Below are positions 25,859 to 34,600 of a stretch of DNA of 64,000 nucleotides, in pieces. Under the pieces are notes generated by a model. It did no database searches. It was not told the origin of the DNA and was given only the letters and a program-made list of their open reading frames with translations. Positions within the stretch are counted from its first letter, which is position 1. The number at the start of each line of letters is the position of its first letter. The stretch covers positions 2,914,001 through 2,978,000 of the forward strand of contig CM052829.1 in assembly GCA_028534125.1 (NCBI GenBank). The letters are read 5' to 3'. Both the position numbers and the translations under genes were made by a program. The DNA is from Lama glama (Eukaryota).

Positions 25859-28800
25859 TAAAGTGAATTCAATATTTAAAAAATGGCAACATCTTCAAAA
25901 TTTAGTTCTGTATCATAACATGGTGGTGTTCTGTAAGAGAGAAAATGCTCCCAGGGTTGTCACAAGACTTCGTGCTGACTGTGTAACCTCGGCCGGCCTT
26001 GTAACACCGCTCTCCTGGGGCCGGACCCTCAACAGCCATTCGGCAAAGCTTGTGTTCATGAAGGAATTAACTGGTTTGCTTTTGATTAATGAAATTTTCT
26101 ACTTGGATCTTATTCATCAAGAAACACACAAACCCCTTTTCAGAAGTTATGGACACTTAAAAATATTTGTCTGGAATATTCGTGTTTTAACAATTGGCCT
26201 GTTATCAAAAACATTCTCATTAAACATTAAACACTAAACATTTTTTTAAATGAAGAATAATATAATATAACCTGTGCTGGTTTTTAGTTGTTTAACAACA
26301 TAAAGCAACAAGAAAACTGTAGTTTTAGTGAATTTGTTGAATTCATAAAAATAATTTAATTGAAACTGCAGACTTAGGAATGTTAGGGCTGAAGAGGCTG
26401 TTTTTATCAGCTCTGGTCTATTGCCAAGGCTGTCCCACTCAGCTTGTTGACTTTATGATATTTTTCTTCTTCTTATCAGGCCCCCTGTTTTTAGGCCTGA
26501 GTACAGCACTACTGTGAGAATGCATCCCTCACTTTAGTTAGGATTTGTTAACATCAGTGCTGATAGAAATTTGTAACCAGTTAGCAGGCAGGTGACAAGT
26601 AGGGGAGCAAACGCTGGCTCTTGTGTGCTAGCCTTTATGAAAGGCTGTGACTGGTGATCGTGATCCCGATATAAAGAATTGTCAATGCAAATTACATGTG
26701 TGTTACATTTTCTAGGAGTCTTAATGCAACACACTCATATATGCAGGTAAAATACATCAGCTCCAGGAGTCGAGATGACAAAGCTGTGATGCAGCTGGGG
26801 ATGAGGAAAATTAAAGGAGGCTTTGGGAAAGGAAGCCCTAGGACGAGTAGTTTTCACGACTATGAATTAGCGCCTGGCAGCTGAACTCCATTTTTAACAC
26901 ACCAGACAAGGAATAAATTATTTTATTAGAATGCAGGGAGTTTGTGTGATATAATATATGTTGCTAATTTACTAGCAATTAAATTGAAAAGTCTGGTATG
27001 TAAAACTCACATGTTTCTATTGAGCTGGGGAGCAGCAGACACTTGTTTATGAATTATTTTGCTCAAATAACTATGTATTTTAAAGTCACAAACATTAAAA
27101 ACAAAGGTAAAAAGAACGTCTTTTTATAGACCTTATCAGTATAAGTAGATGAGTTTAATGTTTAATCAGTCTTTGTTTTAGATCTTTATAAAGAAAGGTT
27201 GCTGGTGTTTTAAAAGAGAAAACGAATTATTCAAGAACCGGCAATGTAAAATTTACAGCTGTAAGCACTAATATTAGAAGTTGTAAAATAAAATCAATTA
27301 AGACATAGGCCCACATGTTGACCCAAGAAGTCATAAAATACCAACCATGTGTATTGTAAACCTAACTTTTAGACTGTTAAAAGGGGTGCATGATTAAAGT
27401 GTCATAAAGAAATTTTATGATTTCATGAGATCAACACTTTAAAATTTCCTAGGCTCTTCCTTGACCCGTGTTGTAAAATGTTTTTAAGCACAGATCTTTC
27501 AGATTACATAATAATCAGGCAGATACTGTTTCCTCTATATGTGAATTATTATGCGTAAAATATTCCAAGTAATATAGAATTCAGCTAATTTAAAATAACA
27601 ATACGTGGAAGAATACTTGGAGAATTTAGACGTAGTTATGGTTGCACAGGTCCACTAACATAAGATTTCACTCCCAAAGTACATTCTTTCTTGGTCATTT
27701 TCCTTAGTAAATGGCAGAGACAAATGCTTTCTATTCTTTGAAAATGTTGAACTACTAGTAATGATCATCATAATTTTGGCACCTTTCCTGGTGTGAGCTG
27801 TCCACTTCATATTCTTTTAGTTTTTAGTCTTTGCAGTGTGGGCTGGCATTTCTTCAAATGAGAATGAGGAAAATTGTTCATTTCACAGAGGGCCCACAGT
27901 GGTGGTGTGAATTTCCACTGTTGCTCCTCCTAGGCTCCTGGAGCTAACAACTGATAATTTCAGTTGTACTTAAACTGTATTGAAATCTGATTACATTTGG
28001 ACATGTAACTAAATTGCAAGTTTTATGGGGACTGTCAGTGCGGAATTGACTTAATCATGAGGCAATGTGCTTATTCCTAAAAGGTTTGGAATGACAAATG
28101 TTTAGTGACAGTTTTCTCCCTTTTCTAATACATCAGTAAGGAAGCTCAAAGCGAAGGAAAAGAATCTGCAAGAAGCACATTCTACAGGTGTTGCGACACC
28201 TGAACACAGGGTGAGTGACAGCGCCTTTATATCTGTGTGTTTGTAATTTAAATCTTCGACTAAACAATATTTCATGAAGAAAGAAACACTGGCTGGGTGC
28301 GTATCAGGCTTATGTTAACGGAAGTGGACTCCAGTATTAAGTAAGGAGAACACTTAGCAAGTATAACCGATAGCCAGTAAAACTCCTCCTAAATGTGGTC
28401 CTTTTCCGTTGTCATGCTGTGTCATTTTTAATTTGTCCAGGAAATGTGTGCCTCCCAGCAAACATTTGGAGAAAAGAAGGAAGAAAAATAGAAAGAAATT
28501 GATTCCAGAAAAGGGTTACTGAGAATTCTAAAGTTTGCCTCCTGATTTAACAAAGACCCAGGGAACACATACTTGACGTTTTCTGCCCGGCTCCTGGCGC
28601 CCCGCGCTCCTATGGAGGTTTATATTCAAGTTAAACGTAAATTTTCTTGAAACTGGAGTCACTTTAATGACTCCAAAAAGGCAACTAAAGAAACTTAAAC
28701 GACAAGTAGAAACGTTTTGCCTGTAAATGAGTGATGAGTAAACACTTCAAGGAGAAACACGTCTTCCCCAAACCTGTGAGTTGCTCCGGAGACCCTCCCT

Positions 28801-30748
28801 GCGGGGCCAAGTGCGCAGCCCGCGCGGATTCCCGACTCCCAGGAAAGTAACAGGTGTCGGGGCTGCGCGGCGCGGACAAGTCAGCCTGGAGGATGCAGCA
28901 GCAGACTAGGAAGCACGGCTCAGTCGTTCTAGCTTTTTCTTCACAGTGGGGGAAAAAACTGCAAAGGCAACGGCAAAACCCCCCTTAGTAAGGTGAGAGC
29001 GACCAGGATCTTATTCTTGTTCGGAAAAATTAGGGAGTCTGATCCAGTGAGTGCCAGGACTAGCGCCCGTCACGCGCGACGCTCCAAATCTGCCTCGCAG
29101 TCGCGGAAACGCCTGGGGACTTCGCTGAGGGAGGGGAGTCGCACTGCCTCCCAGGCGCTCCACCTGCCGAGTTTGGTGCAAATGCACATAAGCTCTCTTC
29201 CACTGTGGATGTTTGGATGGGAGTGGGGAAAAGCAGACTTGGGGACAATCTGGATGGAGTACGCTTCAAAATGAAAAACACCCTAGAACTGGACGGTGAG
29301 AAGAAAACTCGGAGGGCGAGAAAAGACCCCGCGGCCAAGCGCACACCGGGGCCCCGGGCCCTGCATCAGCGGAGCGGCTGTACTGCCGCGCACGCCTCGC
29401 GCTCTGGTGACCGCCTCGACCTTCGCGGAAGCTGGGCTTCGGCGCGTGTGCTCCAGTCTTGGGAAGGTGACCTAGTCTAGGGAGTCTGGATAACCCGTCC
29501 CACCCGGGGTGCAGCAGGCCTCCACCCCAACTCGGACCCTGCGCGCTGTGGTGGCTCTGCAGCGCGCCTGCCCAACACAGACACCTGCGCATCCTTGCGC
29601 TCCGCTCTCCAACTTTCCAAACTTCTGGCGGCTCGGTGTTCGGAGCGCCCGTGAAGCCGCACATCTTCCTGCAGTAGTAACCCTCTGGATTAGGGCTGGG
29701 GAAACAGGGAGTGGGGCGTTGTACAAGAGCCACAGGTGAAGAGGTGGTCCTCAGGGCTTTGGGGCCATGATCTCCCAGTTTTTATTTTTTTTGCCATAGT
29801 TTGCGTTTTCCATTCTCTAACCTCACCGGGTCAAATTAGGTTGTGCACACGAACTTCCTTATACAGTGAGCATCAGAAAGGGATTCTTGGGGATGAACTG
29901 GCTTTTTAAGCCTTAGTTTATTTGGAAATATTGTGCCTTGACGGAAACTCCAACCAAACGTCTTTGAGTTTGCACTCTCCGGGGAGCTCTGAGCATAGCT
30001 CAGTTGGAACTGCTGGCCCGCCATCAGGAGAGTTGCCTGGCTCGGGCAAGGAACAGGCCGCCGGGGCTCGCCCAGCAGTGTACAGCTGTAGCAGCTGCCG
30101 GGCGGCGGATTTCGAATTCGGAACAACAGACCCAGATGTGAGGACGCCTCACAGAAACGCAGGCGTTTCGCGGCCCTCCTGTCCTGGCCCGTGGCGCACA
30201 CTGTCCGCCGAGGGCCGCCGGGGTGCGGGGCCTGGCGCCGTGGGGCCGAGTCGCTGCGGGGCGCGCTACGTGGGCGCGGGCGGCGGCGGCGTGGGGAGCG
30301 CCCGCTCCGCCAGTGGGCGTCTTCTGCAGCCGCCGCCGCCGCCTCCACGGGCCGCGGCACTGCAGCGCTTTTCTCCGCTGCTTTCGAGCAGTCGCTGAGG
30401 CTCAGCCACCGGAGCGCACACAAACCACGCCACGCTTGCAGGCAGCGTTTCTGCAGCCCCTCGCCCCAGCCGGGAGCACGCCGATTGTGCGCGCCAGCCT
30501 GCAGCCAGGCCCCGTCGCGCGGGACTCGTCCCCGGCCCCAGGTCCTCCGGCATCCAGTGCGGAACACGATATGAAGATTGGGCCGAGAGGGGCGCGGAAG
30601 ACCAGAACGAAGGACTGAGTAGACTGACGATCGGGCCGACCGGCCCGGGAGAGCTGGTCCTGCGGGGGCGGAGCCCGCCGAGTCCCGGCCCGCGACGCGC
30701 CCCTCCTGCCGGTGGCCGGCCCCCACCGGCGCCCCGAGGAGGAGGGTC

Positions 30749-31640
30749 ATGGCCGGCCCCGAAGACCCGCTCGCTCCCCGCCCCCAGGCCCCCCTGCCTG
30801 CGGCCGGGGACAAGCCCGGCTCCGGCCCCGGCAAACTCCGCCCGGAGCCCGGGCGCAGGGCGGCCGGCGGGGGGATCGGGGCGGGCCCGGGCCCGGCTCC
30901 CGAGCAGCCTAGCCGTGGTCGGGCCGAGCGTGTCGCACCCCCACGCCCGCCCCCCTCCTCCGCAGGTCGCGCCAGCTCCGCTGGGGGCCCCGGCGCTCAG
31001 TCTGCGCGCGGCGGCGGAGGCTGGGTCGCAGCCCGCGCTCCTTTCGCGCTCGCCTTCTCCCCGGTCCGCTCCTCCACTCCATCTTCCTTTTACTTCTGGC
31101 CGCCGCCCCCCCTGGCCCCGCCTTCTCTTCTCCCCTCCTCATCTGCCTTTCACCTCCCCGTGCGTCTCCCAGGAAGGGAGGGCGCAGCGGCGGCGGCGGC
31201 GGCGCCGGCTCGAGGAGGCGGCGGCGATGCTAGCGGAGGAGGAGGAGGAGGACAAGAGGCAGCTCCCTTGAGCGTTCCCCCCGGCAGTAGTCACCGCGGC
31301 GGCGGTGGCAGCGGCGGCGGGAGGCGGCGGCTCTTCCTCTCTCCTGCGCTCCAGGGATTGCTGCTCCCAGCACGCGCCGGGCCCCGGCCGCCGCCGCCGC
31401 CGCCCCGGCTCCCGCTCGGCCCGGCTGCCTGTCGCGTGGGCTCCCACGGCTTCCCAGGAGCCAGCGGGGGCTGCCCCGGCCCCAGCGCAGGCGGCGGCGG
31501 CCGAACTCCGCGGCGGCCCCGAGGCGCCGGCGCCGCCCTCGCCGCCGCGTCCCCGCTGCTCTTCGGCTCCGACATGGAAGATGGATCTTCTAATAATGCG
31601 AGCTGCTTCCGAAGGTTGACGGAATGTTTCCTGAGCCCCA
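30749..31640 (+). CDS. PDE10A: PDE10A first coding exon, long N-terminally extended form (partial CDS, phase-1 donor)
   Basis: ORF from ATG 30749 (gtcATGg, strong Kozak) reads without a stop into ...LLFGSD-MEDGSSNNASCFRRLTECFLSP. The exon ends CCA|GTAAGT at 31640/31641. The extension resembles my recollection of the long human PDE10A isoform (MASLEEPLAPRPQ...FYFWPPPP...RRRLFLSPALQGLLLPARAG...LLFGSDMEDG). Confidence 0.8.
31574..31640 (+). CDS. PDE10A: PDE10A2-type N-terminus of cAMP/cGMP phosphodiesterase 10A, 22 codons + 1 nt
   Basis: gacATGg start; MEDGSSNNASCFRRLTECFLSP(S) matches the PDE10A2 N-terminus, including palmitoylated Cys11 (31604-31606) and the PKA site RRLT16 (31619-31621); canonical GTAAGT donor. 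Confidence 0.97.
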
Positions 31641-34600
31641 GTAAGTGTCTGGCTCCCCATTCCCCGCGGTGGACGGCGGGCAGGGTGCGTGTGCCCGGGG
31701 CGTTTGCCTGCCAGCGGGCTTCTCTGGAGGGGCGGGGGACTGGAGGCACATTGGCGGCTCGGGAACCTGGGCCAGCGCCGGGACACCGGGATTTCCCAGG
31801 CTTCGCGTGCATGTGGGGGAAGGGTGATCTGGGAGAGCGGTGGGAGCCGCGCGTTTAGGACGGGACCTGCTGCCCGCCTCGGGGCCCCGGTGCTGTTTCT
31901 GGCCACACTTGCCCTGCGCGTCTTTGTACTCTCAACTCTGTGACCGCTTACGCCAGGCTCCTCTCCCTTCAGCCTAGGACCGCTCGGCTGGAGTAAACGC
32001 GCATCCTTGGGGGTCCCGCCCGCTGAGTCCTCTGTTTGGGCGAGGGCAGGCCAGGGCCGCGGAACCCCGCGCTCCCTAAAGTGAAGGCACTGCTGTTACC
32101 CGGGTTCGGTGCCTGCGCCCGGCCGCTCCACCGCCGAACCCCAGTGCGTGGACTGGCCGTGTGGAAATGGGTGCGCCTCCGCGAAGAGTCCACTTTCTCT
32201 AGATTCTGGGGCTTAGGTCGTACTCGGGTTGGTAGAGGGAAGGACAATGAGGCGTTAGGGCAGAGGAGAAAAGCGCCGCCGGTCCGGACCCCCGGGAGGA
32301 CCACGACCATCCCGCCTCCCCAGCTCCGGGAGTGGGGCTGAGACCGCGCTGGAGCAGGGGTGGCAGAAGGCGTGTCACGGGGGAGGGGGACTAGACTGAG
32401 CAGAATCGTCAAAGCAGAGATTTGCTAGAAGGCAGGAGGCGGGAGACGTTAAGGGGAGAAGCGCCGGGTGCACAGAGGAGGGGGTCGCCGTTGTCTTGGA
32501 TGGAGGGCGAGCGAGGTGAGGACGGGAGACCCGGGGCGGGGCGGGGCGGGGAGGGAGGTCGCGCCCGCGGGGCACCAGGCGACTCCGGCGCCGGCCGGCT
32601 CGGGCGCGGCTTCCCGCGGCCCAAAGCACGGGTCTCCGGCGCCGCCGTATACCGCGTGCGCACCCGAGCCTTTGTCTGCTTCTCGCCGGGGAACAGCGTT
32701 TCCGCCGCGCCTTCTCCCGGCAGACTCTTCCCTGCTGTTTCGGCTTCCTGCTCCCATCTGCCACTCACGCCCCAGCCCCGACCAACCTGCGCCTCCCGGG
32801 TACCGGGGTCCAACCCCTCCTCTCGCCGGAACTTGTCCGGGCTCACTGCTCGCCTGGGCGCCTTTAGGGTACAGCTCCTGGGTGTGCGATCGTGTCTCTT
32901 GGGCTTGGCTGCTCCCCCCGCGATCCCACCTCCCGGGCGATGGTCAGTTCACGCGGGCCGCGTGGCCCAGCGGCCTCTCGCACGTTCTGGCGGGCTCCGG
33001 CCGATGGCGGCGGGCTCTGCCCCTGCCTGCACGTTGACCTGATAGGACGGTGGGGCGTGGACCCTGGACTCCCAGCTGACCCCCTCATCCTATTGGCCTC
33101 CCCTAGTCTGACCGGAACGTGAGCTCCCAGGTATCTGCCTTCCCCGGGACCCCACCTGAGGGTGCTGACTGACTGATAGATGTGGTTGGGGAGGGACGTG
33201 GTCTGGGCAAGGGTGGCTCGCCGGCTGCCCTGAGATGTGTTAGGTGTGGACATTTTACTTGCTGAAACAGATGCAGGTTGGCCGTGAACTGAAGATGGGG
33301 AGAGCACAGAGCTCCCAGCGCGCTGACTTGGGTTAGCCTCAGGCCTAGGACTGGGTGTTTTGCCCCCTTCTTCGTGTACTGATGATTTCCCCCTCTAAAA
33401 AATAAACATAGTTTTCACAGTTGGCAGCTGGTGGGGGAGTGGGGACGGGGTGGGGGTGGGTGGGGGGGCTGCCACACCTTGCATATGAATATTTTGGGGA
33501 AGAAAGCTGTGCTAAGGAGACCAGGTATGTAGCGATTTGGGTGGAACACCTTTTCCTAAAATGATCAGGTTTCTGTTCGTTGTTATTCCTGCTGTTTGGG
33601 GAGGGGCAGGTGGTGAGGGATGTTGTGGAGCAGAATAGAGTGACAGCTCAGGTGGGAAGGTGTCCTAGGGGAGCCCCCCCAGGCACTCCTTTTGGAAAGA
33701 CAGGACCTGGAGGAGAAGAGGGCATCTCAGCCCCGCCCCCTTCCCACCCTCAGCTCTGCAGGAAGTTCCCATGGGGAGAAGCCCAGGGGTAATAGACTCA
33801 AGAGTTGTCGGGAGCTTTTTGTTTGTTTGGTGGTTGGTTTTTGTTTTTCCTTCTCTCCTAACCAACTCAGTGAGGAGGAGTTGCTTGGGGTTTGAATAGG
33901 ATCCAGAGGTTGTAAAAATCCTTGGGATAGGACTAAGGTTCTTTTAAGCAAAATCTATTATTAGACCCGCCTCACTGCAAAGGTCCGAAGATGGATGCTT
34001 TAAGGACAGTTGCCAGTTTCCGCTCTGACACTGTATCCTTCACTCTGGGAGACCGCGTTTCTGTCTGTTGCTTTAGGACAAGCCACGTTTGTGTGAATTG
34101 CTGAGGTACCAGAAGCCTGGCAGACTTTTTTTGAATATTTGTCAATAAAAATGGCTCTTTTTGAAAAAAAAATTTATAAGACTAAAAATGTCCAGGTGTA
34201 TACAAATGTGTCGTAATTGTTGCGTGTTTCTTCCCCCTTTCCCTTTCAGTTTGATTGCCTTTGGGTCTAACAAGCAAGTTGTCATGTAAAGGCTGCTGTG
34301 TCCAGTTGTTGCTCGTAGGACTGCCTGTTTTATCATCATCAAAAAGCGACTTGTGTTGGGAAAGCATACTGCCCTAGTTCCATTCCTGCCCATCCCGGCT
34401 CTGCATTTGGTTCACACAGTCACCGGTTCACTCAGTAATGCACAGAGCAAACACTTATTAAAAGCTCCTGCCCCTTGCCAGGCACTGCCCTAGCTGGGCT
34501 GTGGTCCAAGAGGAATTCAACGACCAGGAGAAGTGAGCCTTCCAGAGCAGGCCAGCATTGATGCTCAGTGCTAGAAGGGTCAAGGGTCACTCTCCATCAC

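Follow-up and report, generated by a model that had tools for sequence, protein, structure and literature searches.

The window, by which we mean the whole 64,000-nucleotide stretch of DNA analysed, contains the 5′ end of the camelid PDE10A gene. The frame at 30749–31639 was identical at 282 of 297 positions to isoform X4 of Camelus bactrianus, and the PDE10A2 donor that follows it at 31640 is in phase 1, 67 nt from the classic ATG at 31574. The common LTDEK exon lies outside the window. The main features of the locus are:

30749–31640, forward strand: coding part of the main PDE10A2-type first exon, with the long-form ATG at 30749, the classic start at 31574 and the donor at 31640
32500–32515, forward strand: short phase-1 first coding exon (MEGER), matching the MEGE(P/Q)G isoforms of a mustelid, an otter and a bat
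28501–33000, no strand assigned: CpG-rich promoter region of PDE10A (CpG observed/expected 0.61–0.96 and GC content 0.50–0.79 in 500-base blocks)

The candidate stretch discussed here is CpG-rich (observed/expected 0.77–0.87 at 28.5–29.5 kb) and lies ∼1.3 kb ahead of the long exon-1 ATG at 30749 and ∼2.3 kb upstream of the PDE10A2 ATG at 31574. TATA, CCAAT and GC-box elements gave no match within 28400–29500. Since the first exon sets the place of PDE10A in the cell, another 5′ exon matters, and it would add to the promoter and isoform list of a drug target. According to excerpts of the literature, PDE10A1, A2 and A19 differ in their N-termini (PMC4872433), and reviews put the splice variants of PDE10A at about 18 or speak of up to 15 minor forms (PMC12571622, PMC13095499, PMC7855852).

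Several further observations concern the surroundings of the candidate. Between the long-form and the classic PDE10A2 Met, 30749–31573 (+) encodes an in-frame, 275-codon extension rich in Pro, Gly and Ala, which is present in many mammalian models, including a marsupial, and would make Cys11 internal. The MEGER exon (32449–32515, ATG at 32500), for which P0067, P0078 and P0116 (mustelid, otter and bat) were the isoforms compared, is intact in the camelid and has a donor (GAG/GTGAGG) of 9.75 bits. Another well-formed exon candidate, 46 nt long, lies at 28947–28992 (+) and may be a 5′ exon without coding function; its acceptor has 14 pyrimidines out of 17 (a level reached by 68 of 2106 YAG sites) and its donor (AAG/GTGAGA, 10.5 bits) is the best in 28000–34000. 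Two putative CRE half-sites (TGACG, CGTCA) lie near the candidate stretch itself, at 28574 and 29068. Strong donor-like sites downstream of the island edge (28501–64000) numbered 32 on the forward and 16 on the reverse strand, compared with 22 and 20 upstream of it; the forward-strand excess is as expected inside a transcribed gene. RNA runs contained up to 0.31 of the words of 28900–31700 and were not used as evidence.

Start codons, frame and donors of the candidate exon

The first-pass annotation had proposed an alternative first exon of PDE10A that encodes a myristoylation-type N-terminus from ATG 29217 and is spliced from a donor at 29295 to the LTDEK exon. Its local reading of the DNA was correct: the ATG at 29217–29219 opens MGVGKSR, 29293–29301 reads ACG/GTGAGA, the 79 nt from 29217 to 29295 leave the donor in phase 1, as at the PDE10A2 donor, and a second ATG with A at −3 is in frame at 29271. 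The elements that bear on the proposal are:

29217–29237, forward strand: ATG and MGVGKSR myristoylation-type motif, in a weak start context (T at −3, G at +4)
29271–29273, forward strand: second in-frame ATG, with A at −3 and without Gly2; non-Met in three of the three homologues that cover it
29293–29301, forward strand: donor ACG/GTGAGA of the first-pass annotation, phase 1, 7.95 bits
29404–29412, forward strand: donor CTG/GTGACC with exon end at 29406, phase 1 from ATG 29217 (190 nt), 4.54 bits
29182–29274, forward strand: out-of-frame upstream open reading frame with ATGs at 29182, 29209 and 29254, overlapping both in-frame ATGs
29295–29351, forward strand: basic patch with 8 Lys/Arg and 2 Asp/Glu in 19 residues (residues 27–45)

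Four points had been overlooked: the T at −3 of ATG 29217, the three out-of-frame ATGs whose frame ends at 29274, the openness of the ATG-29217 frame up to 29480, and additional in-frame phase-1 donors at 29406 and 29466. Two of the out-of-frame ATGs (29182 and 29209) are ahead of ATG 29217, and ATG 29271 has the best start context among the five. All three donors are in phase 1 from ATG 29217 and able to join the LTDEK exon; on a rough matrix of donor base frequencies they scored 7.95 (29295), 6.59 (29466) and 4.54 bits (29406). With the 29295 donor, the N-terminus would have 26 residues, with no Cys and 5 basic versus 4 acidic residues. The 63-residue version made with the 29406 donor adds the basic patch, which is encoded from ATG 29217 only when this donor is used, and the case for myristoylation is stronger with it than as first framed with 29295.

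A camelid-restricted, myristoylated PDE10A would start just upstream of 29217, end its first exon at 29406 (or 29295) and be acylated by NMT at Gly2; with the 29406 donor, the Lys/Arg patch would provide a second membrane signal, and membrane location would be independent of Cys11/Thr16. We regard such a product as improbable. ATG 29217 is in frame with both donors, MGVGKSR meets the M-G-x-x-x-[ACGST] signature of NMT substrates (M1GXXX[ACGST]X7 in an excerpt of PMC9018777), and residues 27–45 are like the patch of a myristoyl-electrostatic switch (PMC10940682, in excerpt). However, the start context is weak, out-of-frame ATGs lie upstream, the 29295 version has neither a Cys nor a marked basic excess, and no matching protein was found among the matches listed, in weak searches of 90% clusters. 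The motif was also missing from the homologues that cover it, and its frame was lost in P0127 and the panda, as described below.

We also estimated how often such a combination arises by chance. Within the window, 84 of 6842 GT sites reach the 7.95 bits of the 29295 donor, MGxxxS[KR] opens 1 of 1380 ATG-initiated frames on both strands, and an ATG with an open frame to an equally strong phase-1 donor occurs 17 times on the forward and 7 times on the reverse strand. In 1500 order-2 Markov resamplings of the forward strand, searched for an ATG plus an equally good phase-1 donor, MGxxxS[KR] was found in 11 (0.7%), MGxxx[ST] in 190 and MGxxx[ACGST] in 393 (13–26%), and plain MG in 897. The strict motif is uncommon by chance, yet it was chosen after the fact, and the general signature is not rare. 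Its low frequency in the resamplings (11 of 1500) favours the myristoylated form and counts against the leader-exon reading that we prefer.

Homologous DNA and the giant panda model

An exhaustive search with the open frame 29064–29477 as the query retrieved five ENA/Logan proteins (P0123, P0124, P0125, P0126 and P0127; E 5e-24 to 2e-4). They are known as translations alone, and we read them as translations of orthologous DNA from other mammals. A ruminant origin is probable for P0123 and its cluster mate P0128, the tail of P0128 being a close match to a sheep-hybrid protein. ATG 29217 is covered by P0123, P0125 and P0127; the other two begin downstream of 29295. At the motif position, P0123 reads MRVGKS (Gly2 lost), P0127 reads IRVGKS (ATG and Gly2 lost) and P0125 reads MGVGKR (Ser6 lost), followed in P0125 by stretches resembling the other two frames of the window. 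M-G-x-x-x-S was therefore conserved in none of the three (Gly2 in one, Ser6 in two, both together in none), and the myristoylation-type N-terminus, present in the camelid, fails the conservation test outside camelids. The ATG itself was kept in two of the three, with frame shifts in P0125, P0127 and the panda model described below, and the second ATG was kept in none, being replaced by Ile in two and lying in a shifted frame in the third. One upstream position differed in the opposite direction:

29190–29192, forward strand: AAG, where three of three homologues have an in-frame Met (MP(L/F)), nine codons upstream of the MG/MR/IR position

This Met is possibly the ancestral start of a short frame, and because of it the MG/MR position would be internal in the homologues. 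The frame from an ATG to a phase-1 donor position near 29295 was open in all three covering homologues, although open frames are favoured here because the homologues were found by a translated search. The open frame and the shared upstream Met could indicate a short coding exon, against the leader reading. Its product would be a short, unacylated, cytosolic N-terminus that starts at ATG 29271 in camelids and at the upstream MP(L/F) ATG in other mammals, comparable to the MEGExG and MKRSYG isoforms, short phase-1 N-termini that are annotated for PDE10A. The start context of ATG 29271 also fits such an exon. We nevertheless consider it improbable, as frame shifts scramble the peptide in P0125, the 29295 GT appears to be lost in the panda, and none of the proteins among the matches listed starts in this way.

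Conservation was not bounded by the 29295 donor. Identity in the proposed exon (16/23, 15/23 and 6/23 aligned residues) was no higher than in 29358–29477 (29/40, 29/40, 26/40 and 27/40, leaving out P0127, which is in another frame there), and similarity ran through both donors and through stop codons of the window to ∼29730–29790. This is the pattern of conserved promoter-flank DNA and not of a coding exon ending at 29295. The GT at 29407–8 fared better: it is certain in P0127, which has a Val codon at 29407–9 preceded by Gln, and compatible with P0123, P0124, P0125 and P0126, so that the position is kept or compatible in five of five homologues. The frame of the MG position leads into 29406 in P0123 and P0125 (in P0125 only via compensating shifts) and is lost in P0127 and the panda, where the basic patch is not kept in frame either. 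Farther downstream, P0002, a hypothetical protein of an Ovis hybrid, joins a homologue of 29598–29729 to the PDE10A2 exon and is probably a gene-prediction artefact.

Annotated isoforms were sampled by a search with the PDE10A2 peptide and by cluster look-ups, which gave at least 99 LTDEK-bearing proteins; large clusters are represented by part of their members, as with 15 of 222 in one case. Among the 99 LTDEK-bearing matches listed, 78 were A2-type, the PDE10A2 exon being itself the query, 12 were A3-type, 3 were MEGExG isoforms and 6 were others; three camelid PDE10A records were among the matches listed (P0007, P0008 and P0065). The proposed N-terminus, or a junction at 29295, was present in 0 of these 99. 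A 29406-type 5′ end was present in one, the giant panda protein UniRef100_A0A7N5JDT6 (P0149, 184 aa), which reads ...HASRSGLTDEKV... and corresponds to the following part of the window:

29276–29406, forward strand: orthologue of the 5′ exon of panda A0A7N5JDT6 (P0149), whose frame departs from that of the camelid near 29350

The first 44 residues of P0149 map solely to 29276–29408 (E 1.5e-12, the sole match at E≤0.05), residues 1–27 matching 29276–29356 in frame +2 (59%) and residues 25–44 matching 29349–29408 in the ATG-29217 frame (80%). The protein joins the LTDEK exon in phase 1 at window position 29406, 111 nt beyond the 29295 donor. One automatic gene model thus supports the earlier idea in part: it joins an exon upstream of the main PDE10A start to LTDEK in phase 1, but with 29406 instead of 29295 as the donor. 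The GT at 29296–7 was probably lost in the panda, because Thr stands opposite the window's TGA at 29297–9. P0149 lacks a Met ahead of the LTDEK exon, its junction is not reached in the MG frame, and it shifts frame again downstream, a shape that it shares with a dingo model and with mouse S4R197. On the basis of the homologues compared and of this model, we reject the idea of a coding exon that is conserved and ends at 29295.

Only one LTDEK-bearing protein among the matches listed starts with MG, isoform X5 of a kangaroo rat (P0081); it carries an A3-type exon with Gly for the usual Ser2 and represents another lineage-specific MG start. Other searches added little. With window 29175–29294 as the query, 14 candidates among proteins of 71–2000 aa were found and none scored, in a search insensitive enough to miss P0123 as well, and a weak profile search among proteins of 404–2000 aa scored 0 of 8000. 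These protein searches are weak because isoforms collapse into 90% clusters. JGI metagenome contigs gave 598 and 338 pattern matches for orthologous DNA, none of them confirmed, and the ESM Atlas yielded no usable entry for either the candidate peptide or the N-terminus of the panda model.

The leader-exon reading and its alternatives

Taken together, these results make it probable that PDE10A has an additional minor 5′ exon here, already included in one panda model and with another donor than the one proposed. We favour, at about even confidence, the reading that the stretch is the 3′ part of an alternative, largely non-coding PDE10A leader exon at the 5′ edge of the CpG island, with its donor at 29406. 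An extra leader exon is likely because the panda model splices from matching DNA. The MGVGKSR start probably arose as a by-product of sequence drift in one lineage, since the compared sequences from other mammals do not keep the lipid-anchor start.

According to this reading, transcription would start within 28.7–29.2 kb, and the camelid would join the 29406 donor to the LTDEK exon. Where there is no in-frame ATG, as in the panda model, ribosomes would start at the downstream MQGVV Met and give a 714–718-residue form, which is predicted to be cytosolic because Cys11 is absent; MQGVV-initiated isoforms of 714 and 718 residues are annotated in a bat and a kangaroo rat (P0122 and P0086). The frame of the leader exon would drift, the MG position being in step with the 29406 donor in P0123, P0125 and the camelid but not in P0127 or the panda. 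In the camelid, scanning ribosomes would have to pass as many as four ATGs lacking a −3 purine to reach ATG 29271, and leaky scanning past weak-context ATGs (PMC13082882, in excerpt) would favour this ATG, which has no Gly2. An MG product would likely be a minority for this reason. Two points speak against the reading: the junction comes from one automatic model with a further frame shift, and the camelid may splice elsewhere than at 29406, because that donor is weak on the rough matrix (4.54 bits versus 7.95 and 6.59).

A less probable but serious alternative is that camelids have no functional exon here. The stretch would then be conserved promoter-flank DNA of the CpG island in which ATGs and donors arose by chance, and the panda model would be an artefact of a rare transcript or of the pipeline. 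The similarity that ignores exon boundaries and stops agrees with this explanation, as do the 17 forward-strand and 7 reverse-strand cases of an ATG with an equally strong phase-1 donor, the other 5′ ends in 98 of the 99 LTDEK-bearing matches listed, and the literature excerpts, which name no exon just upstream of exon A1/2.1. What argues against it is that the panda junction falls precisely on an in-frame GT, a position that each of the five homologues keeps or is compatible with, and that the stretch is CpG-rich and lies so shortly ahead of the long exon-1 ATG.

Much less probable still, the stretch could be a cassette exon inside long transcripts that begin at a far-upstream promoter. It would be entered through a weak acceptor (29100 or 29154), and Met-Gly would be internal and unmyristoylated. 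Both 29155–29406 (252 nt) and 29155–29295 (141 nt) are open and multiples of three, long Pde10a transcripts in mouse come from a promoter far upstream (bioRxiv 10.1101/2025.10.02.680088, in excerpt), and the camel isoform P0065 begins with a long N-terminus of A3 type that maps outside the window. Yet the acceptors have only 10–11 pyrimidines out of 17, which at least 470 of the 2106 YAG sites equal or exceed, the cassette occurs in none of the proteins among the matches listed, and its frame is not kept in the panda.

The leader exon could also have become coding in one lineage. Loss of the upstream ATG (AAG at 29190) together with small indels would have made MGVGKSR first and placed it in frame with 29406. 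In camelids, an older leader exon of PDE10A would then encode an N-terminus of 63 residues that carries a myristoyl site as well as a Lys/Arg patch; we think this unlikely. If the camelid frame were translated from 29217, a lipid anchor would have arisen from leader-exon sequence in one lineage, and membrane binding of PDE10A would not depend on Cys11, bypassing the Cys11/Thr16 PKA switch. A leader exon with a drifting frame, as we prefer, would be a modest annotation gain.

Comparison with known phosphodiesterase N-termini

The literature excerpts contained neither a myristoylated PDE10A nor an exon at this place, a negative limited by the fact that MacMullen 2017 (Gene 606:17), Fujishige 2000 and O'Connor 2004 may already describe the exon. 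In excerpts of the cited papers, PDE10A19 resembles the candidate in having an alternative first exon that is in frame at exon 2 (LTDEK), alters localisation and is lineage-restricted (PMC4872433). It differs in that the A19 exon lies 6.6 kb downstream of exon A1/2.1 and encodes an unrelated N-terminus (PMC4872433), and in that A19 is cytosolic and backed by RACE and protein data (MacMullen 2016, PMC4872433). Identity of the candidate with PDE10A19 is ruled out by position (∼2.3 kb upstream of ATG 31574) and by sequence.

PDE10A2 shares with the candidate the gene, the CpG island and a phase-1 donor, whereas its exon is conserved in 78 of the 99 matches listed, in a sample drawn with a PDE10A2 query. 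Its membrane anchor is palmitoylated Cys11 under the control of Thr16 and PKA (PMC6955301, in excerpt); the background given in the first-pass annotation on this point matches the excerpts of PMC4872433 and PMC6955301, and that on N-terminal acylation of PDE2A3 matches the myristoylation and palmitoylation reported in PMC3169605 (also in excerpt). PDE2A3 is likewise a phosphodiesterase splice variant that reaches the membrane through its myristoylated N-terminus (PMC3169605), but it is palmitoylated as well, whereas the first 26 residues of the candidate contain no Cys and its motif is unconserved.

Panda A0A7N5JDT6 is also close to the candidate, as its first 44 residues are orthologous to 29276–29408 and it makes the same kind of phase-1 join to LTDEK; unlike the exon first proposed, it uses the donor at 29406, has no Met before LTDEK and follows another frame upstream of ∼29350. 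The MEGExG, MKRSYG and MQGVV (714–718-residue) isoforms are minor PDE10A 5′ variants and the likely class for a leader with a drifting frame, MEGExG differing in that it comes from another exon (window 32500–32515).
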